Origin: Thermoanaerobaculia bacterium
GTDB lineage: Bacteria > Acidobacteriota > Thermoanaerobaculia > Gp7-AA8
DNA length: 37,641 bases
Reading direction: 5' to 3'
Assembly (NCBI GenBank): GCA_035576505.1
Contig: DATLWH010000298.1
Location: 1 to 37,641, forward strand
Shown: piece by piece, positions 413 through 37,641 of the stretch
Layout: each line of letters begins with the position of its first letter
Numbering within the stretch: the stretch's first letter is position 1
Notes under the pieces: model-generated
The model's input: the letters and a program-made list of their open reading frames with translations, nothing else
Told to the model about the DNA's origin: nothing
The model's database searches: none
Program-made: the position numbers and the translations under genes

Positions 413-994
413 ATGCCGATTCTGCCGCAGGAGAGAGACTTCTTCCCCGACGACCTGTTCGACCAGCCGATCGAGGAGGCGCCGTGGGAGATCGCGCATC
501 TGCGCAGCCGGCAGGAGAAGTCGGTGGCGCGGCTTCTCATCGACGGCGGCATGCCGTTCTATCTCCCGCAAATCAAACAGACCAAAAAGCGTTCCGGGAG
601 AACGTTCGTTTCCCATCTGCCGCTGTTTCAGGGCTATATCTTTCTGCGCCGCGTGGAGGGTCTTCGCCAGACGCTCTGGCGCACGAGCGCCGTGGTCAAG
701 ATGATCGAGGTGTCGGATCAGGCACAGCTGGCCGCCGAGCTGCTGCAGATCCGGCAGCTCCAGGCCAGCGGGGCCGTTCTCACCCCGCGCATGGATCTGG
801 TCCCGGGCGACCCGGTGCGCGTCAAGGACGGGGCGTTCAGCGGGTACACGGGCGTGGTGACGGAAGAGCGCGGAGCGCTGCGGCTGATCGTGTCGGTGTC
901 GATTCTGCGAAAGTCGGTCTCCGTGGAGTTTCCGCGCGAGATGCTCTCGCAGATGAAACCAGGTGAGTCCGGCCGCGCTCGGCGAAAACTCTGA
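413..994 (+). CDS. NusG-family specialised paralog (RfaH/LoaP/TaA-like transcription antiterminator), NGN plus KOW domains.
   Basis: The NGN-like N-terminus reads WEIAHLRSRQEKSVARLL...FYLP...RTFVSHLPLFQGYIFLR. The KOW-like motif is PGDPVRVKDGAFSGYTGVV. ATG 413 is chosen over the upstream in-frame start at 296 because residues 1-39 of that ORF are low complexity and overlap the previous ORF. Confidence 0.8.
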   Translation: MPILPQERDFFPDDLFDQPIEEAPWEIAHLRSRQEKSVARLLIDGGMPFYLPQIKQTKKRSGRTFVSHLPLFQGYIFLRRVEGLRQTLWRTSAVVKMIEVSDQAQLAAELLQIRQLQASGAVLTPRMDLVPGDPVRVKDGAFSGYTGVVTEERGALRLIVSVSILRKSVSVEFPREMLSQMKPGESGRARRKL

Positions 995-1201
995 CCTGGT
1001 GGTTGCACCCTTCCTCTGTTCCTTCACGACGGATGCGACGCTGTCTCTTTTTGAACAGAACCACCGTTGAGACGCGCGTATGGTCGGGGTGTCGTGAGGG
1101 CATCACCGTGATGTACACGTACAGCCGCGTGTCCATCCTTTCATGTCGCCATACCGATGGCCGCCTCTGAATGGTGAAAGACCCAGCCTTCCCGCCGCGC
1201 A

Positions 1202-1437: not shown

Positions 1438-2688
1438 ATGGACCGCGTACGAACAAAATCCAAGGCCTCCCGGATCAAACGCCCGGCCATCATCGCCGGG
1501 GTGGCCATGGTGCTGATCAGCGGTGGTGTGATGCTCGCCAACATCGACTTCAGCACGCATCGAGTCGATCGGACTACGCTCACCGTCGAAACCGTCCAGC
1601 AGGGGACGATGGAAGTCAAGGTCGGCGCCAACGGCCAACTGCTGTCCAAGCACGTCGAACAACTGGCCGCGCAGGTTTCCGCGCGGGTGGCGAAGGCGGA
1701 TATCAAACCGGGCGCGGTCGTACGGGTTGGACAGGTACTGGTGGAGCTCGCCAATCCCGATCTCATCGCCAGCGCGGAGGAAGCGCAGTCGGCGTGGGAA
1801 GGGGCGGTGGCGGAACTGCAATCCTCCGAGGCCGAGCTGCAGACGAACATGCTGAACCAGGAAGTCGTGCTCACCGGGGCGCAATTCAGTTCGGAAAAGG
1901 CGCAAGTGAAGACCGAAGCGGACGAGACCCTGGCTCGTGAGGGCCTTCTTCCGGGAATTGAGCTGAAGCGCTCGCAGCTCGATCGAACCCAACTGAAGAA
2001 GGTTTACGAGATCGAAGGGAGCCGCCTGAAAAAGGTGCGCGACAACATTGGGGTCCAACTGGCTGTCAAGAAATCCAAAGTCGCGCAGCTGGCGCGGGCG
2101 CTGGATCGCGCCAGGACGCAGGCTGCTGACCTGAAGGTCGTGGCCGGCATCAACGGCATCGTGCAGGCCATCACCGTCGAAGTCGGGCAGCAACTGCAGC
2201 CGGGCAGCCCGATCGGCCGCATCGCGCAGCAGGATCAACTGTACGCGGAGCTCAAGGTTCCCGCGCGTGAGGCCACACAGGTGCAAGCGGGACAAAAGGT
2301 CATCGTCGATACCCGCAATGGGACGGTGGACGGCATCGTCACACGCGTCGACCCCGGCGTCACGGACGGCACGGTCGTGGTGGACGTCGATCTGCGGGGT
2401 GTGGTCCCTGCCGGGGCCCGTCCGCAGTTGCCGGTCGAAGGCACCATCTACGTCAGCCAGTTGCCGAACACGCTCTACGTAGGCAAGCCCTCGTACGTCA
2501 AGAACGATACGTCGATGAGCGTGTACAAGCTCGATCCGGCCGGTCAGTATGCGGCGAGGGTCACGATCAAAGCCGGCAAGGTATCGCTCAATTACCTGCA
2601 GGTGCTGCAGGGCTTACAGGCGGGCGACCGCATCATCACCTCCGAAATCGGCGCGTGGCAGGGCCAGGATCGCATCCTGTTGAAATAG
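1438..2688 (+). CDS. HlyD/MacA-type periplasmic adaptor (membrane fusion protein) of an ABC-type efflux system.
   Basis: The N-terminal TM anchor is PAIIAGVAMVLISGGVMLA. It is followed by a barrel-sandwich segment, a long coiled coil (AEEAQSAWEGAVAELQSSEAELQ...LARALDRARTQAADLKV) and beta-barrel-like C-terminal segments. ATG 1438 is preceded by a purine-rich aagaggg. Confidence 0.85.
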   Translation: MDRVRTKSKASRIKRPAIIAGVAMVLISGGVMLANIDFSTHRVDRTTLTVETVQQGTMEVKVGANGQLLSKHVEQLAAQVSARVAKADIKPGAVVRVGQVLVELANPDLIASAEEAQSAWEGAVAELQSSEAELQTNMLNQEVVLTGAQFSSEKAQVKTEADETLAREGLLPGIELKRSQLDRTQLKKVYEIEGSRLKKVRDNIGVQLAVKKSKVAQLARALDRARTQAADLKVVAGINGIVQAITVEVGQQLQPGSPIGRIAQQDQLYAELKVPAREATQVQAGQKVIVDTRNGTVDGIVTRVDPGVTDGTVVVDVDLRGVVPAGARPQLPVEGTIYVSQLPNTLYVGKPSYVKNDTSMSVYKLDPAGQYAARVTIKAGKVSLNYLQVLQGLQAGDRIITSEIGAWQGQDRILLK

Positions 2689-2747
2689 CGTTCGCCGGGC
2701 TGAATCACAAGACCGCCCCGGCCGGCCATCCTGGCAGCAGATTCAAG

Positions 2748-3965
2748 ATGGCAGAGGATGCCATGAGCGAAGATCGTTCGGCTACGTTCCACAAGCTATA
2801 CGGAATCAGAAAGCCGAGGGTTGTCTATTATAAAAGAGATTTCCTCGACTACGTATTGATGATCGTGCTGAGCGCACTCGCTCTCAGTCTGTCGTACGGT
2901 TTTGGCCAAGCCATGTCGATCGCCGGGCTTGCTCTGTGTGCCTTCATGCTGGTCATGTTTGCGGTGAGGCACGGCGTCGAGCTCAGCGTTCCCGTGATCT
3001 TGAGAAGACCGCAGGATGTGCTTTACATGTTCGCGTATAAGCTCCAGAATTTCAAATCTCCGTATCTCATCGCGATCAGTCTCCTGCTGCTGGAAAATCT
3101 CCTGATCGCGGTAACACCGAATCTTCCGCACCATGTGGCATTGGTACGCACGGTCGCTCTCTATCTGTTTTACATCCATTTCCTTTCCATCACCGCGTTC
3201 CGAACAGTCATCCTGATCGATCATCTTCGGAAGAAGGAGCTGGTCCGTGAGGTGTTGATGCAGACCGCGTGGCGGCGGGCCATCACCGAAAAGACGAACA
3301 TCACGCTGGAAATCGTGCATGCGTACATCACCGGGCTTCTGACGCACATCATCCAGATCGCGCCGTGGTATCTCGTGATCCGCTATTTCAGCTTTTCGGT
3401 GATCTTCCTGCCGGTCGTGTGCGCGGTCAATGTCTTCGTCCACTTGAAATGGCTGCAGGGGTTCAATGGATGGTTCTACCGGGATCACTGGCTTGGGCAC
3501 AATTCGGAGGCCGAGTTTATCTTTCTCCACGGCACGCACCATGATGCCATCCCATCCGGGTTGATCGCCGTGGCGGAGAACGGCTTTCTGGAAGGGTTTC
3601 TGCGGTTCACGATCGGCTGGCCCGTGCCGTTCTACAACCCTCTGATCGCGTTTCTCATATGTATGTATGACGTCAGAACGGATATCGTCCAGCATCAGTA
3701 CATTCCTGGCGTCTATCCGAGACTATCGAGACAGTTCCTGGAGGTTTTTCAGCATCCGACGCATCACTATGGATCGCTCGAACCTTACAGCATCGGGGCG
3801 AAAGTGGATCAGCCTGGCGTTGCCGAGGCGTTCAAGAATACGTTTGCGTGGGTTCCTGACGGGATCAAGAACTCGGCCAAGCTGGACGAAGAGCTTACAG
3901 GTTTCAAATGGGACAACCCGACGCATCGGCTGATTCTGAGCCTGTACGACAGGTATCAAAAATGA
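2748..3965 (+). CDS. Polytopic membrane protein with a tripartite His-box (HX3H, HX2HH, HX2HH). Putative membrane di-iron oxygenase of the desaturase/hydroxylase superfamily. Paralog 1.
   Basis: It has multiple hydrophobic helices. The motifs are DHWLGH, HGTHHD, HQYIPG and HPTHHYG. It is homologous along its length to the ORF at 12929-14173. The start is uncertain, with ATG 2748 or 2763 both possible. Confidence 0.65.
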   Translation: MAEDAMSEDRSATFHKLYGIRKPRVVYYKRDFLDYVLMIVLSALALSLSYGFGQAMSIAGLALCAFMLVMFAVRHGVELSVPVILRRPQDVLYMFAYKLQNFKSPYLIAISLLLLENLLIAVTPNLPHHVALVRTVALYLFYIHFLSITAFRTVILIDHLRKKELVREVLMQTAWRRAITEKTNITLEIVHAYITGLLTHIIQIAPWYLVIRYFSFSVIFLPVVCAVNVFVHLKWLQGFNGWFYRDHWLGHNSEAEFIFLHGTHHDAIPSGLIAVAENGFLEGFLRFTIGWPVPFYNPLIAFLICMYDVRTDIVQHQYIPGVYPRLSRQFLEVFQHPTHHYGSLEPYSIGAKVDQPGVAEAFKNTFAWVPDGIKNSAKLDEELTGFKWDNPTHRLILSLYDRYQK

Positions 3966-4017: not shown

Positions 4018-6438
4018 ATGAATCTCTGGTTCGATTTGAAATACGCATGGCGCCTGTTGATGAAATCGAAAGGCTACTCGTTCATGTGCGCGAGCGTCGT
4101 TGCACTGAGTCTGGGGCTCGCAGTATGGACGTGCGAGCTCATTTACAGCCAGGTGCTCAAGCCCCTCCCTTTCCCGAAGTCCAGCGCCTGGTACAGCCTG
4201 CAGATCGGCACGAAAGCCGAGTCCACGCCGCATCCCGGTGTCGATGCCTACACGTATCAGGAGCTGCTGAAGCGCAATCGCTCGGCCGACTACCTCGGGG
4301 CCTTCGCGGAGCAGCCCGTCGTTCTCAGTGAAGGACAGGCGAGCACGCGGTTGCGGGGCGTGGGAATCAGTCCGCGCCTGCTCGCCGCAACGCAGACGCC
4401 GCCTCTCATGGGGCGCATCTTTCAGGAATCGGATGGCAAGTCCGGGGCCGCCCCGGTAGCCATCCTCAGCTACGAGACATGGCAAACGCACTTCGCCGGC
4501 GATTCGAATGTCGTCGGCAAGATGACTCGAATTGACTCGGCGCCGGTGCAGATCATCGGCGTAATGCCGAAAGATTTTCTGGCGTTTCGCGATTTCGAGC
4601 TCTGGGAGCCGCTGCAGATGCCGGCCCTGGCGCGGCCGGCCGACTCGACGATGACATTGATGCCGTTCGTCATCGCGGCGGACAAGAAGAAGGTCGTTGC
4701 GAATCTGAACGAGATGAAGCCGGCGATTGCGGGCGTCAATCACGATCATCCGGAACTGTTCGACTCCGGGCGGCACGTGGCGCTCATTCCTGCCCATCAA
4801 ATGTACACGCATTCCTTTGCGCCGATCGTGATGATGATGAGTCTCCTCGCCGCGGCCGTGTTGCTGATCGGCGGTATGAACATCGGCATGGTATTTCTGG
4901 CGCGATTGCTGGAGCGCAGCCGCGAGATCGCGTTGCGTAATGCACTCGGCGCGTCGCGCGGGCGGCTGATGCGGCTATGCCTGCTGGAGACGGCCTTGAT
5001 CGTTCTGCTCGGGCTCGTGGCCGGGTGGGGGCTGGCGGGACTGGGTGTCCGTTGGACGCAGGGTCTCTATGAATTCGGGTCGCGGATCAAGGGGACCGGA
5101 CGCCCTCCCAACCTACTGCAGTTACGGCCCGCCGATCTGGCGGCGGCATTGATTTGCGCCCTGGCGATCTGGCTGCTCAGTACGCTCGTTCCGGCATGGC
5201 GTGTGGTCAGACAGGACGCGGCCGAAGTGCTGGCGGGCAGCGGCAAGGGAACGTCCCGCCCCGCCGGCAACAGGAGCGTGGCTCTGCTCGTCGGTGTGCA
5301 AGTGGTGGTCTCCTGCCTGGTCCTGGTGGTCTGTACGAATCTGGTGCTGGCCGTCAAGAAGGAGGTGAACAAGCCTACCGGCCTGAACACCGCGGGCGTC
5401 ATCATCGCGACCAACCCTACAGTCTTTGACGCACGCTTTGCCCAGCCGGCCGAGCGCCTGCGTTATTGGGAGGAATTGAAGACGTCAATCGAGAGCAGGG
5501 TCCCGGGTGCCGCAGTGGCCTTTACCACGGAGGTGCCGACGGAACCAGGCAGCGTGCCCGCTGCCATCGAGACGCAGCAAGGCACGACCAACAAGGGTGC
5601 GTTCAAGTTGCCGGCCACGATCGTGTCGGAAGGCTATTTCTCGATGCTTGGGCTGAACGCCCGTTCAGGCCGTTTGTTCGAAAGTACCGACAACAGCACC
5701 TCCCTCAACGTGGCCGTCGTCGATGAGAAACTGGCGGCGCGTTATTGGCCCGATCAAAATGCGCTGGGCAAACGTGTTCAATTGAACCCGACGGAGAATG
5801 GCCCCTGGCTCGCCGTCGTAGGAGTTGTCTCCGCCGTTTCGGCCGGGCCTTACAGCTCCGACGTCGGGATCATTTATCAGCCGTTGCGCCAGGCGCTGCC
5901 GTCGGGCTTCCGGCTGTTGGTCAGACCGCCGAGCACCACCAGCGACAGCCGGAGCGCGATACGAGCCGCTGCCTTTGCGGTCGATCGGGATTTGCCATTG
6001 CAGAACCTGCAAACGGTCGACGACTACGTAGCGTCGCTGAATATCGCGACGTCAGCCCTGGTACCGGCCGTCACCGCCGTGGCGCTCATTACGGCATTGC
6101 TGGCGGCATCCGGTCTGTTCGGGCTGATCAGCCGCTCGGTCGCGCAACGTACGCAGGAAGTGGGCATCCGCCGTGCGCTGGGTGCCTCGCCGTGGCGGGC
6201 CACTTCGAGGTTCACCCGCCAGGGGGCGGTGTATTTGTGCGTGGCGATTGTCGGGGTCGCGCTGGGGGTCATGGTGATGCCCCTTCTCAGCCGCGCGATC
6301 GACAATATTCTCGACCACGTGCTCCTCGGCACGTTTGGGGTCGTCCTTCTCATCGCCGGCGTCATCTTTTTCGCCTCGTATCTGCCCAGCCGTAGCGCGG
6401 TGGCCATGGAACCGGGCGACGCGTTGCGTTACGAATAA
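4018..6438 (+). CDS. Duplicated FtsX/MacB-type ABC transporter permease (ADOP-like, 806 aa, two MacB_PCD plus FtsX halves).
   Basis: The N-terminus is LKYAWRLLMKSKGYSFMCASVVALSLGLAV. The first FtsX block is LERSREIALRNALGASRGRLMRL. The second is AQRTQEVGIRRALGASPWRATSRF, and the C-terminus is SYLPSRSAVAMEPGDALRYE. Confidence 0.9.
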   Translation: MNLWFDLKYAWRLLMKSKGYSFMCASVVALSLGLAVWTCELIYSQVLKPLPFPKSSAWYSLQIGTKAESTPHPGVDAYTYQELLKRNRSADYLGAFAEQPVVLSEGQASTRLRGVGISPRLLAATQTPPLMGRIFQESDGKSGAAPVAILSYETWQTHFAGDSNVVGKMTRIDSAPVQIIGVMPKDFLAFRDFELWEPLQMPALARPADSTMTLMPFVIAADKKKVVANLNEMKPAIAGVNHDHPELFDSGRHVALIPAHQMYTHSFAPIVMMMSLLAAAVLLIGGMNIGMVFLARLLERSREIALRNALGASRGRLMRLCLLETALIVLLGLVAGWGLAGLGVRWTQGLYEFGSRIKGTGRPPNLLQLRPADLAAALICALAIWLLSTLVPAWRVVRQDAAEVLAGSGKGTSRPAGNRSVALLVGVQVVVSCLVLVVCTNLVLAVKKEVNKPTGLNTAGVIIATNPTVFDARFAQPAERLRYWEELKTSIESRVPGAAVAFTTEVPTEPGSVPAAIETQQGTTNKGAFKLPATIVSEGYFSMLGLNARSGRLFESTDNSTSLNVAVVDEKLAARYWPDQNALGKRVQLNPTENGPWLAVVGVVSAVSAGPYSSDVGIIYQPLRQALPSGFRLLVRPPSTTSDSRSAIRAAAFAVDRDLPLQNLQTVDDYVASLNIATSALVPAVTAVALITALLAASGLFGLISRSVAQRTQEVGIRRALGASPWRATSRFTRQGAVYLCVAIVGVALGVMVMPLLSRAIDNILDHVLLGTFGVVLLIAGVIFFASYLPSRSAVAMEPGDALRYE

Positions 6439-6473: not shown

Positions 6474-7205
6474 ATGACTACTCAGCCTCTCATCAGTCTG
6501 CAAGGCATCAAGAAGGTCTTTTACACCGAGGAATTGGAGACAGCGGCGCTAGACGACATTCAGATCGACATCGATCAAGGCGAATATGTTTCGATCAGCG
6601 GTCCGTCCGGCTGCGGGAAATCGACGCTGTTGTCGGTGATTGGACTCCTGCATTCCGCCACCGATGGAAAATATCTTCTCGACGGCAAGGAGGTAACAGG
6701 TCTGCAATCCTCAGAGCAGGCGCGTGTGCGGAACCGGGAGATCGGGTTCATTTTTCAGGCGTTCAACCTGATTCCCGACATGAGCGCGTTCGAGAACGTC
6801 GAACTGCCGTTGACGTATCGCGACGACCTCAATAAGAAACAGCGCCATGACCTTGTCCTGACGGCGCTGGAACAGGTGAATATGGCGGAGCGCCAGAAGC
6901 ACTTCCCCTCGCAGCTGTCCGGCGGTCAACAACAGCGCGTCGCGATTGCCCGCGCTCTGGTCGGGAAACCGAAGGTTCTGCTCGCGGACGAACCGACGGG
7001 GAACCTCGATTCGAAGAACGCGCAGCTCATCATGCAGATGCTCGACGGGCTGCATGGGCAAGGCAGTGCCATCGTCATGGTCACACACGATCCGCGCTTC
7101 GCCGAGCGGGCAGAGCGGCTGATCTCGCTGTTCGACGGACGGATCGTTGAGGATCGGCGCCTTGACGCGAGCAGCTCCCCGGTAGGGGTCGCCGCAAGCG
7201 CCTGA
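6474..7205 (+). CDS. ABC transporter ATP-binding protein (MacB/LolD-type NBD).
   Basis: Walker A is GPSGCGKST, the signature is LSGGQQQRVAIARAL, Walker B is VLLADEPTGNLD and the H-loop is VMVTHD. Confidence 0.95.
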   Translation: MTTQPLISLQGIKKVFYTEELETAALDDIQIDIDQGEYVSISGPSGCGKSTLLSVIGLLHSATDGKYLLDGKEVTGLQSSEQARVRNREIGFIFQAFNLIPDMSAFENVELPLTYRDDLNKKQRHDLVLTALEQVNMAERQKHFPSQLSGGQQQRVAIARALVGKPKVLLADEPTGNLDSKNAQLIMQMLDGLHGQGSAIVMVTHDPRFAERAERLISLFDGRIVEDRRLDASSSPVGVAASA

Positions 7206-29100: not shown

Positions 29101-32100
29101 CCTTGGATCGAGCGCGCGGCCTTGGAGGCGCCGGCCAGCATGGTGGTGCTGTCGGCCAGGACCTCCGAGCAGCTGAGGCGCCACGTGACCAATCTTCTGA
29201 CGCATCTCGAGCGTACGCCCGGCCTGTCCATGACTGACGTGAGCTTCAGCCTGTTCGTTGGCCGTATGCATCTCACGCATCGCCTGGTTTGCATCGCCCG
29301 CGATCAGGACGAGCTGACTCGTCTTCTGCGGCAATGGGTCGAAACGGGCTCGGCGAGCCAGGTTTATGCAGCGGAGATTCTAGAGGCCAGAGTACGCGAA
29401 CAGGTTTCGCTGAAAAAATTCGGAAACTATTGCATCCAGGAATGCAAGGTCGCGAAGGATGCAGCCGGTTATCAGGAGAATCTGGCGGCCGTCGCCGAGC
29501 TTTATATCCAGGGATATTCGCTCGACTTTCCTGCCCTGTTTTCCGGAGACGCGAAGCGGATACCGTTGCCGACATACCCGTTTGCCCGGGAGCGCTACTG
29601 GGTTGATCCTGTTGGTGTGGGGTCGAAACCAGCGATCGTTGCCACGAGGGCACTTCGCCCGGAGCTCCGGATCAATATGCCGAGCATCGGCGAGCAGAGG
29701 CATGGCACGACCTTCACTGGGTCAGGTGGAGATCTTCGCGCGTCGGTCCAGGAGGAATTGTCGAACATAGCCACGGAGCTCCTGCACATCCCTGCCGGCG
29801 ACATTTCGCCGGACAGGATTTTGATAGATCTGGGATTCGACTCCATCGGCCTGACGAACTTCGCGAAGGCGATCAATGACAGGTTTCAACTCGACATCAC
29901 GCCGGTTCTTTTCTTCGACTACCCGGCTATCGGCGACATTGCGAAGTACCTGGCCGTAGAGTGGGAAAGCGACATTCGGCGAGCCCATCGGGAGAGCGCT
30001 CCCGCGACGCAGGTCGTCGCGGAGCCGGCGGTTTCGCATCTGTCGGCGCAGACCGGGCGAGCGGCTCCGAGTCTTTCTCCCGAACTTCGCTTTGTAAACG
30101 AGCCGATCGCAATCGTAGGTATCGCCGGCGTCATGCCGCAGTCGGAAGATCTCGACGCGCTTTGGGAAAATCTGCGCGACGCGAAGGATCTGGTCACCGA
30201 GATTCCGAGAGATCGCTGGAACTGGGAAGATTACTATGGCGATCCGCTCAGGGAGGTGAACAAGTCGAACTCCAAGTGGGGTGGGTTCATGAAGGAGGTC
30301 GACAAGTTCGACTCGCTGTTCTTTGGAATCTCCCCAAAAGAAGCGCAGATGATGGACCCGCAACAGCGGATCTTCCTGGAGACGGTGTGGAAGGCGATCG
30401 AGGATTCCGGGCAGAAGGTCTCCGATCTGGCGGGCACGAGGACCGGCCTCTTTGTAGGCGTCGGCTCAAATGATTACCTCGACCTCATGCGGCATCAGGA
30501 ATCCGTACTGGATGCCTACACGGCCTCGGGGAATGCCCACTCTGTTTTGGCGAATCGGGTTTCATATCTGCTCAATTTGCGGGGACCCAGCGCGCCGATC
30601 GATACGGCGTGTTCGAGCTCCTTGGTCGCCCTGCACAGAGCCGTTGAGTCAATTCACGCGCGAAGTTCGGACATGGCGATCGTGGGCGGCGTGCAGGTCA
30701 TTCTGAGCCCCGGCGGATACATTTCGTTCGGCATGGCCGGAATGTTGAGCAGCGACGGAAAATGCAAGACGTTCGACAAGCACGCCAATGGCTATGTGAG
30801 AGGAGAGGGTTGCGGAGCCGTGCTCCTAAAACCTCTGGTGGCCGCCGAGGCTGACGGGAATCATATCTACGCTGTCATCAAGGCGACATCGGAAAATCAC
30901 GGCGGGCGGGTGACGACGATGATCGCGCCGAATTCCGCTGCGCAGGCCGAGCTCCTCATCGAGGCCTATGACAAAGCCCAGATCGACCCCACGACTGTCG
31001 GCTACATTGAGTGCCACGGCACTGGAACCACTTTGGGGGACCCGATCGAGATACAAGCTCTGAGCAATGCCTTTTCCGAGTTGTACAAGACGTGCGATCG
31101 AGGCCCGGCGGATAGACCTCACTGCGGCGTGGGGACGATCAAGACCAACATCGGCCACCTGGAGACTGCCGCCGGCATCGCAGGCCTGCTGAAGGTCCTG
31201 CTGGCGATCGATCACAAACAGATTCCGGCGAACATTCACTTCGAAGAGCTCAATCCGTACATTCGGCTCGAGGGAACTCCGTTCTATGTCGTCGATACCC
31301 TTACGGCATGGGAAGCGGTAATGGGCGAGGATGGAGTACCGCTTCCGCGCAGAGCGGGCGTGAGCTCTTTCGGTTTTGGCGGAGCCAATGCGCATGCCGT
31401 CCTGGAGGAATATATCCCGCAACCACGGGAATCCGCCGCTTCCGTGAACGAGCCGCAGCTGATCGCTCTCTCCGCGAAAAATGACCTCGGCATCAGGGCA
31501 TACGTGCAGTCGCTGCGCACGTATCTCGACAAGCATGAGGTCGAACTAGCCGACCTTGCCTATACGCTCCAGGTCGGAAGAGACGAAATGCCGGAGAGGG
31601 TGGCATTCGTCGTCTCGGGCACGGAAGAGCTGAAGCGGCAGCTCGACCATTTTCTGAAGGGCGACGGGCAGACGGAAGGCCGCTGCCGAGCCACTGCCAC
31701 AAACAGCGGCGTTGAGGAAGCTGCCGTCCAAGCTGCTATCGAACGTAAGAATCTAGTCGAGCTGGCGGAGCTTTGGGTGTGCGGCGCGAAGATCGACTGG
31801 CGCTTGCTCTACAAGGCGGGTGTTCCGAGGCGCATCTCCGCTCCCACGTATCCTTTTGCCAGAGAGCGCCATTGGATTCGCAACGCGGAAGCGAAAATCC
31901 GGCGCGTTCCAGCACAGGCAGCTGCACGAGAAGAAGCCGAAGTCGCATTGCGCACGTTCGTGCCGGTTTGGAATCCAGCGCGCGTTGAGACGGGTAAACG
32001 GATCGTTGTACAGGACTCGGCCAAAGTGCTTCTCGTAGGAAGTGATCTTGTTCAACTGGATTGGGTGCGGAAGGCTTGTCCGCGCGCGGAGCTGGTGAAT

Positions 32101-33720
32101 GCTGACAGCCTCGGCGATCGTTCTTTCGACCAGTTGCTCTGGATTGCGCCGGAGAGCGCGAGCGATGAGTCGCTCACCGATCAGCAGGAAAAAGGCGTTC
32201 TGGCTGTCTTCCGCATGATCAAGGCTCTGCTCCATTTGGGGTTTGCGACCAAGAACCTTCTGTGGACGATCGTCACGAGCATGACGCAGCCCGTGACGGA
32301 GCACGAGCCGATTCAGCCCGTCCACGCCGGAGTCGCCGGTCTCATCGGCGGTCTGGCAAAAGAATATCCGCACTGGTCATTGAGGCTGTTGGACGTCGAT
32401 TCACTCGAAACAGTGACGGCTAAGGAATGCTTGTCACTGCCGTGGGACAAGGAAGGGAACGGGCTGGCTCATCGTTTGGGCAAATGGTTCCAGCAGGGAC
32501 TGGAGCCGACGGCAGCCGTGCCGCTGACCACTTCCGCGTATCGCCAAAGCGGTGTTTACGTTGTGATCGGCGGCGCGGGCGGGATCGGCGAATTGTGGAG
32601 CCGGTTCATGATTGAGACCTACCAGGCCAAATTGGTCTGGATTGGCCGCCGTCCATGTGACGCCTCCATTGAAGGGAAGGTCGATTCCTTAAGCCGGCTC
32701 GGCCATGCCCCATTGTACATTTCGACCGATGCGACGAGCCTGGAGGCATTGGCGCGGGCGCGTGACACCATTCTGAAGACGCATCCCGCGATTCACGGAG
32801 TCGTTCACTCAGCGCTGGTTCTGCATGACCGGAGCATCGCTCGCATGGACGAATCAGCATTCAGATCAAGCTTGGCGTCGAAAGTCGACATCAGCGTGAA
32901 TCTGGATCGGGTGTTCGGAAGGGACGAGCTGGATTTCATACTCTTCTTCTCGTCGATCGTCTCCTTTCTTAGGCCAGCCGGGCAATCCAGCTATTCCGCG
33001 GGCTGTATGTTCAAGGACAGCTTCGCGCACATGCTGCAGCAGCAGCGCCCTTATCCCGTAAAAGTGATGAACTGGGGGTACTGGGGCAGTGTCGGCGTCG
33101 CGGCCGATGAATCCCATCGGCAGAATATGGCGCGGTTGGGTCTCGGATCGATCGAGCCGCAGGAAGGTATGACAGCTCTTCGGGCCTTGATGAACTCCGA
33201 GCTAAGTCAGGTCGCCTTGGTCAAGATCACCAGCAGCAAAGTGAGGGCCGCCGCTGCCAACGAGACTACGCTGCGCGTCGGCGCCTCAGCGGAGCTCGCC
33301 GGGCAAACGATCGCCGGCCACATCCGATGGACAATCATCGAGACGTTGTGCGAGGAGCTTAGAATCGACGGCGCTATGATCCGCAATGATGCGCCAATGT
33401 CAGACTACGGCGTCGATTCCATCGCCGGTGTCAACCTCGTTCGTGGGATTAATGAGGCGCTGCAGATTCAACTCGAGCCATCCAGCCTGTTCGATTACAG
33501 AACTATCAATCAGTTAACCGAGCACATACTCGAGAACTGGCAGCAGCAGATTGCATCGCAAGTGGCGCACGATGTGCCCATCGGTACTGGTTCCGCTGGC
33601 AGAACGGCGCCAGCGAGTGCCGGGACGTCAGTGCCAGAAGTGAGTAGTGCTCGGCTATTGGATGAGGTTCTCTGGCAGGACGCGTCAGTTGTTGACAGTT
33701 ACGAAATGCTGACGTTCTGA
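26200..33720 (+). CDS. Trans-AT polyketide synthase, 2506 aa: cMT - ACP2 - KS3 - ACP3 - KS4 - KR - ACP4.
   Basis: It is a single long ORF starting 40 nt after the previous stop. The domain motifs are listed below. Confidence 0.97.
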   Translation: MAYTIAALEAELPSTEMNDLTAEILAASLKSVGLFSDGVHVITDLTLDKQPAEYYERWLSSSIGYLQQQNLLADDLTFKLGVRSLAELWNEWEAKVSAWASNPNQQSQSVLLKACLEGLPAVLSGKRPATDVMFPNSSMRLVEGLYRGNPQADYFNDILGATLSVCIEQLLEADPEHRIRVLEIGAGTGGTTATLLPILRKYPVEEYCYSDLSQAFLMHGKRNFEPQFPALTTAIFDVSKPLEWQSIAANHYDFVIAANVLHATPNIRETLRNAKAMLKNQGVLLLNEIAGWTLFNHLTFGLLEGWWLYEDAAVRLPGSPGLSPAKWREILTEEGFESIILPAAEAHKFGQQIVAAVSDGWTRQRVVRHLPSQRSSAPTQADVQSLEVAATQGSHTVKGSEELRQRRSFEYTRQIVTAKLSEALRMDVAAIRDDASFADYGVDSIVGVNLVRTISEALRIELETTSLFEYSTVEQLSQHILENWHDQITAQVAQPQGTSEAPARVAEDASPAEAETRSEHRFTGNTRLSNVRHGFDVEDENELDTFAPAPIAIIGMSGRFAESESLDAFWKHLAQGDDLVKPVSRWSPADCVTSGSPGQAYCSQGSFIDSIDQFDPDFFGISPRDATYMDPQQRLFLEESWRALEDAGYAGKSVGENRCGVYVGCGSSHYDNLTGKEPPPEAFWGNSQAVTPARIAYSLNLHGPAMAIDTACSSSLVAIHLACQGLWAGETEMALAGGVFLQPTPGFYQVANRAGMLSPDGKCYSFDARANGFVPGEGVGVVVLKRLRDALADGDHIHGVIAGSGINQDGKSNGLIAPNGRAQERLERAVYDRFKINPETIQVVEAHGTGTSLGDSIEYGAITRAFCQYTNQKQFCALGTVKTNIGHASTAAGIAGVLKLLLSLKHRQIPPTLHFAKSNSAIDLESGPFYVNTQLQQWAVEGDEIRRAAISSFGFSGTNAHLVIEEAPWIERAALEAPASMVVLSARTSEQLRRHVTNLLTHLERTPGLSMTDVSFSLFVGRMHLTHRLVCIARDQDELTRLLRQWVETGSASQVYAAEILEARVREQVSLKKFGNYCIQECKVAKDAAGYQENLAAVAELYIQGYSLDFPALFSGDAKRIPLPTYPFARERYWVDPVGVGSKPAIVATRALRPELRINMPSIGEQRHGTTFTGSGGDLRASVQEELSNIATELLHIPAGDISPDRILIDLGFDSIGLTNFAKAINDRFQLDITPVLFFDYPAIGDIAKYLAVEWESDIRRAHRESAPATQVVAEPAVSHLSAQTGRAAPSLSPELRFVNEPIAIVGIAGVMPQSEDLDALWENLRDAKDLVTEIPRDRWNWEDYYGDPLREVNKSNSKWGGFMKEVDKFDSLFFGISPKEAQMMDPQQRIFLETVWKAIEDSGQKVSDLAGTRTGLFVGVGSNDYLDLMRHQESVLDAYTASGNAHSVLANRVSYLLNLRGPSAPIDTACSSSLVALHRAVESIHARSSDMAIVGGVQVILSPGGYISFGMAGMLSSDGKCKTFDKHANGYVRGEGCGAVLLKPLVAAEADGNHIYAVIKATSENHGGRVTTMIAPNSAAQAELLIEAYDKAQIDPTTVGYIECHGTGTTLGDPIEIQALSNAFSELYKTCDRGPADRPHCGVGTIKTNIGHLETAAGIAGLLKVLLAIDHKQIPANIHFEELNPYIRLEGTPFYVVDTLTAWEAVMGEDGVPLPRRAGVSSFGFGGANAHAVLEEYIPQPRESAASVNEPQLIALSAKNDLGIRAYVQSLRTYLDKHEVELADLAYTLQVGRDEMPERVAFVVSGTEELKRQLDHFLKGDGQTEGRCRATATNSGVEEAAVQAAIERKNLVELAELWVCGAKIDWRLLYKAGVPRRISAPTYPFARERHWIRNAEAKIRRVPAQAAAREEAEVALRTFVPVWNPARVETGKRIVVQDSAKVLLVGSDLVQLDWVRKACPRAELVNADSLGDRSFDQLLWIAPESASDESLTDQQEKGVLAVFRMIKALLHLGFATKNLLWTIVTSMTQPVTEHEPIQPVHAGVAGLIGGLAKEYPHWSLRLLDVDSLETVTAKECLSLPWDKEGNGLAHRLGKWFQQGLEPTAAVPLTTSAYRQSGVYVVIGGAGGIGELWSRFMIETYQAKLVWIGRRPCDASIEGKVDSLSRLGHAPLYISTDATSLEALARARDTILKTHPAIHGVVHSALVLHDRSIARMDESAFRSSLASKVDISVNLDRVFGRDELDFILFFSSIVSFLRPAGQSSYSAGCMFKDSFAHMLQQQRPYPVKVMNWGYWGSVGVAADESHRQNMARLGLGSIEPQEGMTALRALMNSELSQVALVKITSSKVRAAAANETTLRVGASAELAGQTIAGHIRWTIIETLCEELRIDGAMIRNDAPMSDYGVDSIAGVNLVRGINEALQIQLEPSSLFDYRTINQLTEHILENWQQQIASQVAHDVPIGTGSAGRTAPASAGTSVPEVSSARLLDEVLWQDASVVDSYEMLTF
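26500..27250 (+). other. SAM-dependent C-methyltransferase domain.
   Basis: The motifs are RVLEIGAGTGGTT, YDFVIAANVLHAT and GVLLLNE. Confidence 0.85.
27430..27650 (+). other. ACP2.
   Basis: The motif is FADYGVDSIVGVNLVRTI. Confidence 0.9.
27847..29097 (+). other. KS3, with the catalytic triad intact.
   Basis: The motifs are IAIIGMSGRFAES, DTACSSS (Cys codon 28333-28335), EAHGTGT, TNIGHASTAAG and GTNAHLVIEE. Confidence 0.95.
29735..29965 (+). other. ACP3. The module has no reductive domains.
   Basis: The motif is LIDLGFDSIGLTNFAKAI. It is near-identical in pattern to ACP1. Confidence 0.9.
30100..31413 (+). other. KS4, with the catalytic triad intact. It is a close paralog of KS2.
   Basis: The motifs are IAIVGIAGVMPQS, DTACSSS (Cys codon 30610-30612), ECHGTGT, TNIGHLETAAG and GGANAHAVLEE. 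Confidence 0.95.
31950..33200 (+). other. KR4, a close paralog of KR2.
   Basis: The motifs are GVYVVIGGAGGIG, HSALVLHD and PAGQSSYSAG. Confidence 0.85.
33310..33545 (+). other. ACP4, close in pattern to ACP2.
   Basis: The motif is MSDYGVDSIAGVNLVRGI. Confidence 0.9.
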
Positions 33721-33733
33721 CCGAGGCCAAGCG

Positions 33734-33895
33734 ATGGAAACAGTGAACGAGTTTCTCAGGACGTTGGTCAGCAAGGGCGTCAAGCTGTCGGCCGTTGCCG
33801 GCCAGCTGAACTGCTATGCCCCGAGCGGGTCGGTCACAAATGACATCAGGAAAGGCATTACCAGGCACAAGCCGGAGATCCTTGCACTATTAGAA
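33734..33895 (+). other. TubC-type N-terminal (beta-hairpin) docking domain.
   Basis: The sequence METVNEFLRTLVSKGVKLSAVAGQLNCYAPSGSVTNDIRKGITRHKPEILALLEG fits the pattern of the TubC_N docking family. Confidence 0.65.
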
Positions 33896-36800
33896 GGCCA
33901 CGCGCAAAGTCAGCCGGCGCAAACCGCCAGAAAGGCTTCGACGGAGCCTCTGGAATTTCCACTGTCCGCGGGGCAGAGAGGGCTTTATATTCTGCAGAAA
34001 CTCAACCCCGCGATGACCGCGTACAACCTGCCGCTCTGTGTCAGGATCAGTGGCGAAATCAACGTCGACCTCCTGCGCAAAGCTTGGAGTTTCGTACTGG
34101 ACCAATATCCTATTCTCACCGCACGTATCGTGGAGAACGATGGTACCTTGTGCCACCGCGTCGATGGGGGCTGCAGAACGACCATACAAGAGACGGCATT
34201 TGCATTCACTGACGAGCAGAGCATGACGTCATTTCTGCGCCAGCGGATGAAGCAGCCGTTCGACCTCGATCGCGGTCCCTTGAGCAGGATTGAGCTATTC
34301 AGGTTGAATGAACGGGAACGGGTCCTACTCATCACCATTCACCACATGATCTTCGACGGCGTTTCTGCCGTGGTGTTGCTGCGCTCACTGCTGGAGAGCT
34401 GTCAGACATTGAGTGAGGGCAGACCGGTCTCCGTATCGCCCGAACTGGGCGGCTACCAGGACTTCGTTGCCTGGGAAGAGGCGATGCTAACATCGGCGGA
34501 AGGGCGGTCGCATGCCGTCTATTGGCAGCGGCGGCTCAGTGGGGAGCTACCAAGCATCGAGCTGTTTCCCGACCTGCCGCGCCTCCCCTCGCCGAGCTTC
34601 GAGGGCGCGTCACTGATCAAGATTCTGCCGACAGATCTTTCCGGCGAGGTTCGTGATTTTGCGAAGGAACAGTCGTTTCTCCCGTCGGTGGTCTTCCTGG
34701 CAGCGTTCAACCTTCTCTTGAATCGATACACGAACCAAGACGACATTGTCATCGGCATGCCGGTGATCGTGCGGCCTGGTCAGAAGTTCGCGACGGAAAT
34801 CGGCTATTTTATCAACATGGTTCCGCTGCGCACGCAGTGCTCCGGTCAGCTAAAACTAACTGAGTTCCTGCGTGAAGTGCGCAATACGATGATGGATGCG
34901 ATTTACCACTCCAGCTATCCGTTCGAGCTCATGCTAGACAAGCTGCGGACGAGGAGCTCGACAAAGAACGCCGTCTTTCATGTGAACTTCGCATATCAGA
35001 ATTTCATTGGCGACGATAGCTTTGCGTCGTTGCCACGACAGCAGGGACTCGATATAACGAATGTCGCGGAAATCGGTCCGGAAGGTTATTCCGATCTCGG
35101 GTTGGAGATATTCGAGAACGAGGCGGTGTTCAGCCTGCACGTCAGGTACAACCCGGACGTATACGCTCGCCCGGCAATCGAGCGTTTCTGCCAGCACTAC
35201 GCGACCCTGTTGAAGAGCATCAGCGGCGATGGAAACCTTCTCTTGCATGAGTACTCCATTGTGCCAGAACAGGAGAAGCGGAAACTCCTGATGGAGTTCA
35301 ACGATACTGCCGCGGACTATCCCAAGGACAAATGCATTCACGACTTGTTTGCCGACCAGGTCATGCTCGACCCCGGCCGGACCGCTGCCTCATTCGCCGG
35401 CCAGACGTTGAGTTATCAGGAACTCCATCGCAAAACCTCCAGCCTCGCCTTCTATCTGCAGTCGCTCGGAGTAAGGCCGGAAAGCGTAGTCGGGCTGTGC
35501 CTGGAAAGATCTCTTGAGATGATGATAGGGATCGTGGGCACCGTGCAGGCGGGCGGAGCTTATCTGCCGCTGGATCCTGATTACCCCGATGACAGATTGA
35601 CGTATATGCTGCAGGACAGTAGTGCCACGATCGTTCTCACTCAGGAGAAATTCAGTGATCGTCTGAGGTCGCTTTTGCCGGCAGGGAGGTCGGTGGTCTG
35701 TCTGGACACCGAATGGGCGGCGATCAGCAGGTGTGCCTTTGATTTAGAGGTCCTGGGCGTGGAATTGCGCCGTGAGGTGACACCTCGCAACGTCTGTTAC
35801 GTGATCTACACCTCCGGTTCTACGGGGAAGCCGAAGGGCGCGGTGATCGAACATCTGGCGCTGGTGAACAGACTTCACTGGATGCAGAAGTGCTATCGGC
35901 TCGACGGGAGCGACGTCGTGTTGCAGAAGACGCCATATAGTTTCGATGTGTCGGTATGGGAGTTCTTCTGGCCATTGACGACTGGTGCCGCGGTGGTCTT
36001 TGCCGGCCCCGATGGGCATAAGGATGTTCGCTACCTGGAAAATCTGATCGACGAGGCAGCAGTGACGACACTGCATTTCGTGCCGTCAATGTTGCGATCC
36101 TTTCTGGACAACGCCAGCGTCAGCTGCAGTAGCGTGAGGCAGATATTTGCGAGTGGTGAGGCGTTGGACCGGCAGTCTGTCGATCGTTACAAAACGAGAT
36201 TTCCGAATGCGGTGTTGCAGAACCTTTACGGTCCGACGGAGGCTGCAATCGATGTGACGTTTTTCGATTGCTCGCACTTGACGTATCCGTTCGTGCCGAT
36301 CGGTGCTCCGATCGACAACATCCAGCTCTACGTACTTGATCCGCACAACCATCCGCAGCCGATCGGGGTGGCGGGTGAGCTTCATATCGCCGGCGACGGC
36401 CTGGCCCGCGGTTATCTGAATCGCCCTGAATTGACGCAGGACAAGTTCGTTCCCAATCCATTCCGTCCGGGCGCCCGCATGTACAGGACCGGCGATCTTG
36501 CCTGTTGGATGGAAGACGGCAACATTCAGTACCTGGGCCGGATCGACACACAAGTCAAGATCCGCGGCTTTCGCGTGGAGATCGGCGAGGTCGAAGCCAC
36601 GCTCAATCAATACCCGCGGGTACAGGAGAGCGCTGTCATCGCCCGGGGTCAGGACTTTGACAAACAGCTCATCGGCTTTTATCGCGCGAACGAGACCACC
36701 ACGGATCACCTCGTGCAACTGCCGAACGAGGATCTCCGGGCGCATCTGTTGCGGACACTGCCGGAGTACATGGTGCCGGCCGCGTTCGTCACGGTGGCCG

Positions 36801-37641
36801 CGATTCCATTGAGCTCGAACGGCAAAGTTGACCGCGGTGCGCTGGCGCGGATGGACGTGACGATTGCGTCGGGCCAGGCGTGGGTAGCGCCGCGGAACGA
36901 CACAGAAAAGCAGCTCGTGGAAATCTGGGAGCAGGTGTTGAGCTTGGCACCGAAGACAATCGGTATCCATGACAACTTCTTCGAGTTGGGCGGCCATTCG
37001 CTACGAGCGGCGCAGCTGATCGCAAAGATTCGTAGACAGCTGGATGTCGACGTACCGCTGAAGGCATTCTTTGAGGGTGGCACCGTCGCCCAATTGGCTC
37101 GATTCATCGCCGGGGCGGGCAACAGCGAGATTCCGGCGATCCGGCCGATCGATCGCTCGCAGTTCGAGCGGCTGCCGCTGAGCTTTGCTCAGGATAGGCT
37201 GTGGTTCATCGACCGACTCGAGCCCGATAGTACCGGTTACAACCTTCCAGGGGCGGTGACAATCAATGGTGAACTGGATATCGATCAACTCGATCAAGCG
37301 TTCAATCTGATCATCGCGCGTCATGAGAATCTGCGCACGGTGTTCCCGAGCGAAGGCGGGCGAGCCCGTCAGCAAATTCTCGATCGCTTTGATTTCCAGC
37401 TGGAACGAGTTGACCTGAGCCACTACGCGGACGGAAGCACGCGCTCGAATGAGGCCGCACAACGATGCCGTGCCGATGCAACGAGGCCATTCGATTTAGA
37501 GAAAGGCCCGCTGCTTCGCGGTACGGTGATCAGGCTCGATGAGCATGAACACGTTCTCATGCTCAACATGCACCACATCATCAGCGACGGGTGGTCGATC
37601 GGCGTATTGATCAACGAACTGCGCGTGATCCTGGAAGCCTA
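33734..37641 (+). CDS. Non-ribosomal peptide synthetase, 3'-partial: docking domain - C - A(Ser) - PCP - C, continuing beyond the window.
   Basis: This gene is absent from the supplied ORF track because the frame has no stop before the window end. My own translation from ATG 33734 gives METVNEFLRTLVSKGVKLSAVAGQL..., and the frame stays open to nt 37641. Typical NRPS core motifs occur throughout. Confidence 0.9.
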   Translation, partial: METVNEFLRTLVSKGVKLSAVAGQLNCYAPSGSVTNDIRKGITRHKPEILALLEGHAQSQPAQTARKASTEPLEFPLSAGQRGLYILQKLNPAMTAYNLPLCVRISGEINVDLLRKAWSFVLDQYPILTARIVENDGTLCHRVDGGCRTTIQETAFAFTDEQSMTSFLRQRMKQPFDLDRGPLSRIELFRLNERERVLLITIHHMIFDGVSAVVLLRSLLESCQTLSEGRPVSVSPELGGYQDFVAWEEAMLTSAEGRSHAVYWQRRLSGELPSIELFPDLPRLPSPSFEGASLIKILPTDLSGEVRDFAKEQSFLPSVVFLAAFNLLLNRYTNQDDIVIGMPVIVRPGQKFATEIGYFINMVPLRTQCSGQLKLTEFLREVRNTMMDAIYHSSYPFELMLDKLRTRSSTKNAVFHVNFAYQNFIGDDSFASLPRQQGLDITNVAEIGPEGYSDLGLEIFENEAVFSLHVRYNPDVYARPAIERFCQHYATLLKSISGDGNLLLHEYSIVPEQEKRKLLMEFNDTAADYPKDKCIHDLFADQVMLDPGRTAASFAGQTLSYQELHRKTSSLAFYLQSLGVRPESVVGLCLERSLEMMIGIVGTVQAGGAYLPLDPDYPDDRLTYMLQDSSATIVLTQEKFSDRLRSLLPAGRSVVCLDTEWAAISRCAFDLEVLGVELRREVTPRNVCYVIYTSGSTGKPKGAVIEHLALVNRLHWMQKCYRLDGSDVVLQKTPYSFDVSVWEFFWPLTTGAAVVFAGPDGHKDVRYLENLIDEAAVTTLHFVPSMLRSFLDNASVSCSSVRQIFASGEALDRQSVDRYKTRFPNAVLQNLYGPTEAAIDVTFFDCSHLTYPFVPIGAPIDNIQLYVLDPHNHPQPIGVAGELHIAGDGLARGYLNRPELTQDKFVPNPFRPGARMYRTGDLACWMEDGNIQYLGRIDTQVKIRGFRVEIGEVEATLNQYPRVQESAVIARGQDFDKQLIGFYRANETTTDHLVQLPNEDLRAHLLRTLPEYMVPAAFVTVAAIPLSSNGKVDRGALARMDVTIASGQAWVAPRNDTEKQLVEIWEQVLSLAPKTIGIHDNFFELGGHSLRAAQLIAKIRRQLDVDVPLKAFFEGGTVAQLARFIAGAGNSEIPAIRPIDRSQFERLPLSFAQDRLWFIDRLEPDSTGYNLPGAVTINGELDIDQLDQAFNLIIARHENLRTVFPSEGGRARQQILDRFDFQLERVDLSHYADGSTRSNEAAQRCRADATRPFDLEKGPLLRGTVIRLDEHEHVLMLNMHHIISDGWSIGVLINELRVILEA
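33950..35230 (+). other. Condensation domain C1, whose donor would be the polyketidyl-ACP4.
   Basis: The motifs are FPLSAGQRGLY and IHHMIFDGVS (HHxxxDG, at 34339-34360). Confidence 0.85.
35290..36830 (+). other. Adenylation domain. The 10-residue specificity code reads DVWHFSLIDK, a Ser-type code.
   Basis: The core motifs are YVIYTSGSTGKPKG, FDVSVWEFFWPL, NLYGPTEAAID, GELHIAGDGLARGY, YRTGD, GRIDTQVKIRGFRVE and NGKVDR. Confidence 0.85.
36890..37100 (+). other. PCP (thiolation) domain.
   Basis: The motif is DNFFELGGHSLRAAQL. Confidence 0.9.
37165..37641 (+). other. Condensation domain C2, truncated by the window edge.
   Basis: The motifs are LPLSFAQDRLWF and MHHIISDGWS. Confidence 0.85.

Follow-up and report, generated by a model that had tools for sequence, protein, structure and literature searches.

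How does a polyketide chain begin when the first synthase of its assembly line opens without a conventional loader? The question is raised by contig DATLWH010000298.1 (assembly GCA_035576505.1; matched by ENA contig ERZ27256710:k141_712097), which most likely comes from an acidobacterium and whose 37,641 nucleotides, analysed as a whole, are here called the window. It is one co-directional array of genes, all on the + strand and of 57-63% G+C, that encodes two polyketide synthases (PKS1 and PKS2) and a nonribosomal peptide synthetase (NRPS); the contig stops inside the NRPS gene, so that genes further downstream are out of view. The window is the 5' part of an orphan trans-acyltransferase (trans-AT) PKS/NRPS operon. 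At the head of PKS1 stands a tridomain composed of an acyl carrier protein (ACP), a DUF2156 domain ("DUF") and a domain of the pyridoxal phosphate (PLP)-dependent lyase type ("SH"). We consider it somewhat more likely than not that this ACP-DUF-SH tridomain is a true loading module and that the product begins with a β-thiolated acyl unit. Domains were called with Pfam and NCBIfam profile scans, whose HMMER E-values reach 1e-176 and rule out chance, and solved-structure matches were taken from PDB searches.

A predicted sulfur-incorporation unit at the head of PKS1

No conventional loader is found in residues 1-1000 of PKS1 (14262-26159; 3965 aa). Pfam instead places an ACP at residues 14-77, a DUF2156/LPG_synthase_C domain at 181-447 and a Beta_elim_lyase domain at 514-911. 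The N-terminal ACP (14301-14492; PP-binding), with Ser43 in the motif GIDSF, aligns with the DUF-adjacent ACP of leinamycin-type proteins. The DUF2156 domain (14679-15671; LPG_synthase_C, 56 bits) shows the fold of aminoacyl-phosphatidylglycerol synthases, with PDB matches to LpiA and AlaPGS (E about 1e-4), and has many invariant residues in common with leinamycin-type proteins. The SH domain (15801-16994), a putative C-S lyase that depends on PLP and is akin to tyrosine phenol-lyase (TPL), has as its top solved structure PDB 9cen, a "Polyketide Synthase Protein" (E=1.4e-60), followed by TPL itself (E=8e-46). Its K748 corresponds to the PLP lysine K257 of TPL, D705 to D214 and R882 to the carboxylate-binding arginine R404, and the stacking residue F615 is also kept; Tyr71 of TPL is replaced by His, and the loop with Arg381 is deleted. 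PLP domains embedded in PKSs have been described as keeping the PLP residues and losing the TPL-specific Tyr71 and Arg381 (PMC3870968). The PKS1 head thus combines the features by which DUF-SH is recognized, namely a DUF2156-PLP pair beside an ACP inside a PKS and the diagnostic residues. Additionally, when it is aligned with actinomycete proteins that end in DUF-SH-hydrolase, identity is 36-38% across 90-97% of the tridomain. As judged from these alignments, the head of PKS1 is a homologue, over its whole length, of the leinamycin-family sulfur-incorporation unit.

What is known of the chemistry of this unit comes from leinamycin-type enzymes. The SH domains of LnmJ, GnmT and WsmR, the only ones for which C-S lyase activity has been demonstrated, cleave S-alkyl-cysteine adducts, and they cleave thiocysteine adducts, leaving -SSH, 50-106 times more efficiently; for DUF, the same authors propose formation of the adduct by conjugate addition (PMC8479088; SH/DUF chemistry also in PMC7618002). 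By analogy, the DUF of PKS1 would join L-cysteine or L-thiocysteine, by its sulfur, to an unsaturated acyl thioester on the N-terminal ACP at the β-carbon of the acyl group, and the PLP-dependent SH domain would then cut the cysteinyl C-S bond, so that -SH or -SSH stays on the chain while pyruvate and ammonia are released. Cysteine would accordingly be the sulfur donor of PKS1, not its backbone starter. The suggestion in the initial annotation that the starter is possibly amino-acid derived is therefore not borne out, since the N-terminus of PKS1 is an ACP-DUF2156-TPL-like PLP lyase, i.e., a DUF-SH unit of the kind described in PMC8479088.

An amino-acid starter could still be conceived if the DUF2156 domain loaded an amino acid onto the ACP, as its aminoacyl-tRNA-dependent relatives would suggest, and the PLP domain remodelled it by β-elimination or β-replacement. 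The fold shared with aminoacyl-phosphatidylglycerol synthases, the membership of the PLP domain in the β-eliminating lyase family and the lack of both an adenylation (A) domain and a ketosynthase (KS) upstream of the PKS1 head are in line with this proposal. However, the nearest activity-tested relatives, all of them SH domains, cleave S-alkyl-(thio)cysteine adducts with a free carboxylate (PMC8479088), and the carboxylate-binding Arg is retained, at odds with an amino acid bound to the ACP as a thioester; moreover, tRNA dependence has been reported for no DUF-SH. We regard an amino-acid starter as very improbable.

Loading module or second half of a split module

With each GTDB species represented by a single genome, a scan revealed at least 250 loci with an ACP-DUF-SH relative, in Acidobacteriota, Bacteroidota, and Gamma- and Betaproteobacteria, and the best 80 were fetched. 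In every one of these 80 the match begins within query residues 1-13 and so takes in the N-terminal ACP, which in each of the 12 loci checked is the start of the protein. For 68 of the 80, 8 kb or more of upstream sequence is visible; a modular KS lies there in just five of these 68 loci and NRPS modules in one. It is the match of all 80 relatives from the N-terminal ACP onwards, together with the scarcity of upstream modular KSs, that makes the tridomain probably a loading module. In many relatives a NusG-like gene stands directly 5' of the ACP-DUF-SH gene, and Massilia and Steroidobacter relatives encode a single ACP-DUF-SH-KS-ACP-reductase protein. Downstream, relatives continue into docked NRPS modules (as in L092) or a thioesterase (TE) and show no KS-terminated PKS: the locus whose KS3 and KS4 are 82-83% identical to those of the window (L090) runs on as C-A-PCP-TE (C, condensation domain; PCP, peptidyl carrier protein) and then into genes for MatE and a carbamoyltransferase, and L093 has one NRPS module followed by non-PKS genes.

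The KS that follows the SH domain is also distinctive. In a neighbour-joining tree, 76 of the 83 post-SH KSs, including KS1 of the window, form an exclusive clade that none of the 86 other KSs enters. This clade spans the loader-like loci and those with an upstream PKS, which suggests that one kind of modified unit is received in both arrangements.

Several points weigh against a loading function. In three relatives (L015, L016 and L021) the upstream protein ends in KS-dehydratase (DH) and the next gene starts with the ACP, and in three more, AT, enoyl-CoA hydratase (ECH), ACP or His-box genes lie between the ACP-first gene and a KS-terminated PKS (ending in KS-DH in L001, in KS in L068 and L075). 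With six relatives in which an upstream PKS feeds an ACP-first protein, and with N-termini of these proteins that are alike in both arrangements, an N-terminal ACP is no proof of a loader. Furthermore, without an upstream KS there is no obvious route by which an α,β-unsaturated or β-keto acyl group would reach the N-terminal ACP. The window also encodes a free-standing ACP, a decarboxylating KS (KS0) and an ECH1 without ECH2 (see below), the very set with which leinamycin-type modules make their Michael acceptor; making one in this way requires a β-ketoacyl chain and hence a KS. Further PKS genes may lie past the contig end inside the NRPS. Finally, the function of DUF is a proposal even within the leinamycin family, and the enzyme activities invoked here, sulfur insertion by DUF-SH included, are predicted from sequence.

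These observations would be accommodated if the ACP-DUF-SH of PKS1 were the second half of a split mid-line module, with the KS of that module ending another PKS protein beyond the contig. The free ACP, KS0 and ECH1, together with an unseen 3-hydroxy-3-methylglutaryl synthase (HMGS), would then build a carboxylated β-branch on the N-terminal ACP before sulfur is added, as in leinamycin module 8, and the visible modules 1 to 4 (M1-M4) would not be the first. Besides the six relatives, the shared N-termini and the common clade of post-SH KSs, the presence of ECH1 without ECH2, as in weishanmycin module 8 (PMC7618002), speaks for this arrangement. Against it stand the rarity of an upstream KS in the loci surveyed, the upstream flank of the window, at whose edge lie a NusG gene and the ORF of a repeat protein that is not a PKS, and the continuation of the relatives into NRPS modules, TE or non-PKS genes; in addition, L014 has an ACP-DUF-SH yet no ACP/KS0/ECH within 10 kb upstream. 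A split module is thus a possibility to be taken seriously, though a doubtful one, and the loading module remains our preferred reading. A homolog search with the N-terminus of the L023 PKS2 homolog, directed at the 340-kb contig, returned only short methyltransferase fragments. The KS that precedes the ACP in mid-line relatives was also considered as the non-elongating KS0 of a dehydrating bimodule, a candidate rejected because its Cys/His/His residues are intact.

Downstream modules and the expected chain

PKS1 reads ACP-DUF2156/LPG_synthase_C-Beta_elim_lyase-KS-DH-KR-ACP-KS-DH-KR (KR, ketoreductase), PKS2 (26200-33720; 2506 aa) reads cMT-ACP-KS-ACP-KS-KR-ACP (cMT, C-methyltransferase) and the NRPS (33734-37641) carries a TubC_N docking domain followed by C-A(Ser)-PCP and a partial C domain cut by the contig end. 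Four PKS modules are thereby defined: M1 (17262-21716; KS-DH-KR-ACP), M2 (21954-27639), which extends over two proteins as KS-DH-KR then cMT-ACP and is split at the identical point in L023, M3 (27847-29952), a KS-ACP without reductive domains, and M4 (30100-33528; KS-KR-ACP). Neither Acyl_transf_1 nor TE domains were found by profile scans of PKS1, PKS2 and the NRPS, and RhiE-like/CurL-like linkers follow every KS of the two PKSs. Modules without AT together with a free malonyl AT in the cluster are the two marks of a trans-AT PKS.

Cys, HGTGT and NxGH are intact in all four modular KSs, so that none looks non-elongating; both DHs have the His...Pro and DxxxQ/H motifs; and KR1, KR2 and KR4, the three KRs, each have the Asp diagnostic of the B type (VRD, LRD and LHD, respectively), which by motif would predict B-type stereochemistry. 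The specificity code of the A domain, read by hand in GrsA numbering, is DVWHFSLIDK, a Ser code, and a 72%-identical relative runs on as C-A(Ser)-PCP-C-A(Ser)-PCP. From domain content, M1 would form an enoyl unit, M2 an α-methyl-enoyl unit, M3 a β-keto unit and M4 a β-hydroxy unit, and the chain would then be joined to Ser and at least one further residue.

Much of the initial annotation holds at this point: the hybrid trans-AT PKS/NRPS character stands given the AT-less modules and the free AT, the order of M1 to M4 agrees with the Pfam domain map and the KS, DH and KR motifs, the A domain does carry a Ser code, and profile scans confirm that the window has no TE. Its collinear reading is upheld for the order of the visible modules; collinearity from the PKS1 head onwards is likely but unproven, given the six relatives fed by an upstream PKS.

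A partial β-branching cassette

Three genes of the window would act in β-branching of the chain. The first encodes an 82-aa free-standing ACP of the donor (AcpK-like) type (7221-7469), with a weak PP-binding match and the motif GANSV; this ACP is conserved beside KS0 in 26 of the 68 loci. The second encodes a free-standing PksF-type decarboxylating KS0 (7459-8676; NF005490, 617 bits, cut-off 445), in which the active-site Cys is replaced by Ser (GGASASG where DTACSS is expected) and HGT and GH are retained. The third encodes a PksH-type homolog of the dehydrating ECH1 (8680-9456; NF005498, 404 bits), which matches PksH of B. subtilis (PDB 3hp0) at E=3e-99 and VirD (8ahq) at E=1e-27. By these profile and structure matches, the free ACP, KS0 and ECH1 account for three of the four core components that make up an HMGS β-branching cassette.

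Profile scans found neither HMGS nor ECH2 in the window, which ends at the contig end, and a Pfam scan found no HMGS among the recurring unmatched open reading frames (ORFs) of the fetched related loci. In the Tahibacter caeni locus (L091) an HMGS lies downstream of the PKS genes, so its absence from the window may reflect the contig end alone. The Trp flag of β-branch acceptors (+6 from the Ser) is absent from the five modular ACPs, which have I, F, L, F and L at this position; leinamycin-type acceptor ACPs lack it too, and its absence here is therefore not decisive. M3 would be the most plausible site of branching by ACP/KS0/ECH1, the HMGS gene then lying past the end of the contig, and under the split-module alternative the N-terminal ACP of PKS1 is a possible site.

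This cassette also allows a different division of labour, in which KS0 would supply an acetyl starter on the N-terminal ACP by decarboxylating malonyl-ACP and DUF-SH would work in trans later in the line, e.g., on the ACP of M3. A KS-ACP module suits β-branching, KS0, ACP and ECH1 are all encoded, and leinamycin-type sulfur addition does come after β-branching (PMC7618002). Nevertheless, the ACP-DUF-SH-KS-DH-KR head is constant whereas downstream architectures vary, L014 and L015 have no KS-ACP module in their visible part, and the post-SH KSs form their own clade, which suggests receipt of a modified unit. An acetyl starter is hence improbable, and the tridomain is still best read as a loader.

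Histidine-box membrane proteins

Two paralogous membrane proteins (30% identity, E=1e-31) flank this part of the operon. His-box protein 1 is encoded at 2655-3965 (gene-caller start 2763) and matches FA_hydroxylase at E=0.0014, below the cut-off; His-box protein 2 is encoded at 12899-14173 (gene-caller start 12929). Three His boxes are invariant across eight homologs, H258/H262, H272/H275/H276 and H347/H350/H351 (HX3H, HX2HH and HX2HH), and in seven of these eight FA_hydroxylase (PF04116) is the only Pfam match, again sub-cut-off. From such motifs, a role as membrane di-iron oxygenases or desaturases is probable for the two proteins. PDB sequence and profile searches with the family returned His-tag artefacts only, and an AlphaFold2 model of protein 2, built with the paralog as sole alignment partner, gave a predicted local distance difference test (pLDDT) score of 36 and no usable fold. 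Some of the acidobacterial loci, that of Candidatus Angelobacter Gp1-AA117 (L017) among them, also have His-box genes, frequently two or three of them, and in L001, L008/L030, L017, L019, L038 and L078 a homolog immediately precedes the ACP-DUF-SH gene.

Trans-acting, export and regulatory genes

Between the cassette and His-box protein 2 lie four genes, and the products of three of them would support the megasynthases. A PksD-type, AT-like acyl hydrolase (9490-10422; motif GVSMG; PDB 8avz, PksD, E=2.3e-77), which scores only 86 bits against the FabD model, would by family serve in proofreading. The metallophosphoesterase that follows (10428-11189; Pfam Metallophos; TIGR03729, 81.6 bits, sub-cut-off) has as its only PDB relative an unnamed Metallophos protein (6unc, E=2e-18); 25 of the 68 loci carry it, and in the gene maps inspected, among loci L006-L030, it sits between the acyl hydrolase and the phosphopantetheinyl transferase (PPTase). 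The Sfp-type PPTase (11179-12012; ACPS, AASDHPPT_N) would prime the carrier domains, and the trans-acting malonyl-CoA:ACP acyltransferase (12013-12885; TIGR00128 fabD, 330 bits, above cut-off; motifs GHSLG and AAFHS) would supply malonyl units to the AT-less modules. Several neighbouring genes overlap or abut, e.g., at 7459/7469, 11179/11189 and 12012/12013, consistent with a single operon.

Export could be provided by an HlyD/resistance-nodulation-division (RND)-type periplasmic adaptor (1387-2688; HlyD_3, HlyD_D23; TIGR01730, 96.9 bits; gene-caller start ~1438), an ADOP-type duplicated MacB/FtsX permease (4018-6438; two MacB_PCD and two FtsX domains), which scores 500 bits against TIGR03434 over 1-803/803 (cut-off 622), and an ATP-binding cassette (ABC) ATPase (6474-7205; ABC_tran, 123 bits). 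To judge from their families, the three would form a MacAB-like pump for the product.

The first gene of the cluster encodes a NusG-family paralog of the specialised antiterminator type (296-994; Pfam NusG, 31.5 bits) that would probably sustain transcription of the long operon. Its NCBIfam matches are all below cut-off: UpxY 68 bits (cut-off 100), RfaH 49 (144) and LoaP 26 (125). LoaP-type NusG paralogs reportedly control long polyketide operons, those of difficidin and macrolactin. The window resembles the LoaP systems in that a NusG paralog heads a long trans-AT PKS operon; it departs from them in its score of just 26 bits, far from the LoaP cut-off, and in the lack of a leader RNA element, an Rfam scan of the window, leader region included, having found no RNA element. 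NusG-like genes lie upstream of the ACP-DUF-SH gene in 17 of the 68 loci by tblastn, and in L039 one was detected directly upstream by Pfam alone.

Two repeats mark this region. Positions 1-148 hold seven tandem 21-nt copies (87% matches) that encode, in frame, KRDLVEx heptads of a truncated non-PKS ORF upstream of the NusG gene. In the 390-nt gap between the NusG-like and HlyD genes, positions 1199-1256 hold two 25-nt copies, each with a perfect 7-bp palindrome (TTTGCAT-N5-ATGCAAA), which could be an operator or a pair of RNA hairpins; the palindrome is absent from all the fetched loci, most of which do not cover the equivalent region.

The accessory genes listed in the initial annotation are all present, and those that it overlooked are the free ACP, KS0, ECH, acyl hydrolase, PPTase and AT. 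Its suggestion of a β-branch at M3, correctly drawn as KS-ACP, gains support from the overlooked KS0/ECH1/ACP, although no ACP bears the Trp flag. As for its view that the combination of accessory genes could not be matched, literature, PDB and plasmid searches indeed revealed no characterised cluster like it; the combination is not unique, however, and many of the related orphan loci contain the blocks AH-metallophosphoesterase-PPTase-AT (AH, acyl hydrolase), ACP-KS0-ECH1 and ADOP-ABC as well.

Variation among related loci

The related loci show further variants. The Massilia/Steroidobacter protein of ACP-DUF-SH-KS-ACP-reductase type (2140-2168 aa; L057 9839-16342, also L061 and L080) comes after genes for LuxR, a NusG-like protein, a donor ACP and KS0, and ahead of genes for an NAD-epimerase-like protein and a GMC oxidoreductase. 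In Bacteroidota (Fulvivirga, Aquimarina) a class-III aminotransferase (AMT) domain lies past the second KS-DH (L039 20508-22277, also L041-L047), giving the order ACP-DUF-SH-KS-DH-KR-ACP-KS-DH-AMT-ACP. Three protein families absent from the window recur elsewhere: a 269-aa protein with an N-terminal ACP, encoded between ECH1 and the acyl hydrolase (L009 5164-5973 and seven other acidobacterial loci); a pair of proteins of ~400 and ~510 aa without Pfam match, 47-56% identical between L093 (13574-18223) and L017 (3334-6093); and a 232-aa family without Pfam match, in 13 loci. Additionally, a 759-aa ACP-DUF-SH protein of Paraburkholderia sp. (L002/L003 10001-12280) stands alone beside transposase genes, without a neighbouring PKS, and is probably a remnant.

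Relation to characterised systems

Literature, PDB and plasmid searches revealed no characterised matching cluster, only leinamycin-type PKSs that are ~37% identical over ACP-DUF-SH; the plasmid protein search returned only such PKSs of Streptomyces and Kitasatospora and ordinary tyrosine phenol-lyases. With module 8 of the leinamycin family (LnmJ, GnmT and WsmR; KS-ACP-ACP-DUF-SH-TE) the window shares the homologous ACP-DUF2156-SH, the PLP Lys, Asp and Arg residues and the trans-AT character, as well as the donor ACP, KS0, ECH1 and lack of ECH2. In contrast, its DUF-SH stands at the N-terminus of the first visible PKS instead of a C-terminal off-loading end, is paired with one ACP rather than two and is followed by a KS rather than a TE; the window shows neither an HMGS nor the eight-module architecture, and the hosts belong to Gram-negative soil lineages rather than actinomycetes. 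What defines the leinamycin family is an eight-module NRPS/PKS that terminates in KS-ACP-ACP-DUF-SH-TE (PMC7618002), and the window is not a cluster of that family.

Closer in layout are PKSs from Lysobacter and Kordia, in which the DUF2156-PLP pair, otherwise described in LnmJ, is N-terminal (PMC3870968). Those of Lysobacter sp. ATCC 53042 (F8TUA6/AEH59109) and Kordia algicida (A9ECY5) have the same head as the window (CP-DUF2156-PLP-KS-KR...; CP, carrier protein) and differ from it in the downstream modules and His-box genes; Lysobacter and Kordia relatives are 47-51% identical to the tridomain of the window. Three non-leinamycin families of DUF-SH PKSs, with a single ACP, no TE and products not assigned, have been delineated (PMC8479088, PMC7618002).

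Other likenesses concern parts of the cluster. The bacillaene system (pks/bae) of Bacillus subtilis provides the best matches of several trans-acting proteins, namely PksD, PksH, a PRK07103 PksF-type KS0 and a FabD/PksC-type AT, but its PksG (HMGS) and PksI (ECH2) are not in the window, its assembly line is unrelated and bacillaene is made without a sulfur unit. The AT-less PKS/NRPS of FK228/romidepsin (dep/tdp) builds a polyketide head that carries a thiol and is linked to a peptide, as a loading function of the tridomain would imply here, and the modules that follow the head in L014 (KS-DH-KR, KS-KR, C-A) stand in the FK228-type order. However, the FK228 pathway has no DUF-SH, and its likeness to the window is one of architecture; the thiol of FK228 derives from cysteine that an NRPS loads and that subsequently loses its nitrogen (bioRxiv 10.1101/2025.03.13.642940).

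Implications

The architecture class of the window has already been seen in sequence surveys, and full-text literature searches found no product of any acidobacterial or other non-leinamycin DUF-SH PKS. Enzymatic insertion of sulfur into polyketides is rare and has been studied in one case only, the DUF-SH module at the C-terminus in the leinamycin family, named after an antitumour antibiotic. If DUF-SH is the first module here, it would represent a new way of starting a polyketide with a thiol or hydropersulfide. A broader generalization, unlikely in our estimation, is that ACP-DUF-SH is a widespread loader that needs no A domain, uses cysteine as sulfur donor only and provides a β-/ω-mercapto or hydropersulfide acyl starter. 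Were it true, L014-like relatives primed with a three-carbon thiolated starter would yield 3-hydroxy-7-mercapto-4-heptenoyl-peptides, i.e., the zinc-binding warhead of romidepsin-type histone deacetylase (HDAC) inhibitors, by a route unrelated to the cysteine/nitrogen-deletion pathway, and the product of the window would be a longer, thiol-headed, lipopeptide-like compound from soil Acidobacteria.

Close relatives are present on long contigs (L022 on one of 5.1 Mb, L023 on the one of 340 kb), and cultured relatives exist, namely Massilia rhizosphaerae NEAU-GH312, Massilia atriviolacea SOD, Fulvivirga kasyanovii JCM 16186, Aquimarina muelleri DSM 19832, Steroidobacter agaridevorans SA29-B and Caballeronia udeis LMG 27134, so that the question of the loader is open to experiment. 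Should a loading function hold, the tridomain would be a portable module for engineering thiol "warheads", and at least 250 species-level genomes of Acidobacteriota, Bacteroidota and Proteobacteria would be a source of sulfur-bearing polyketide-peptides.

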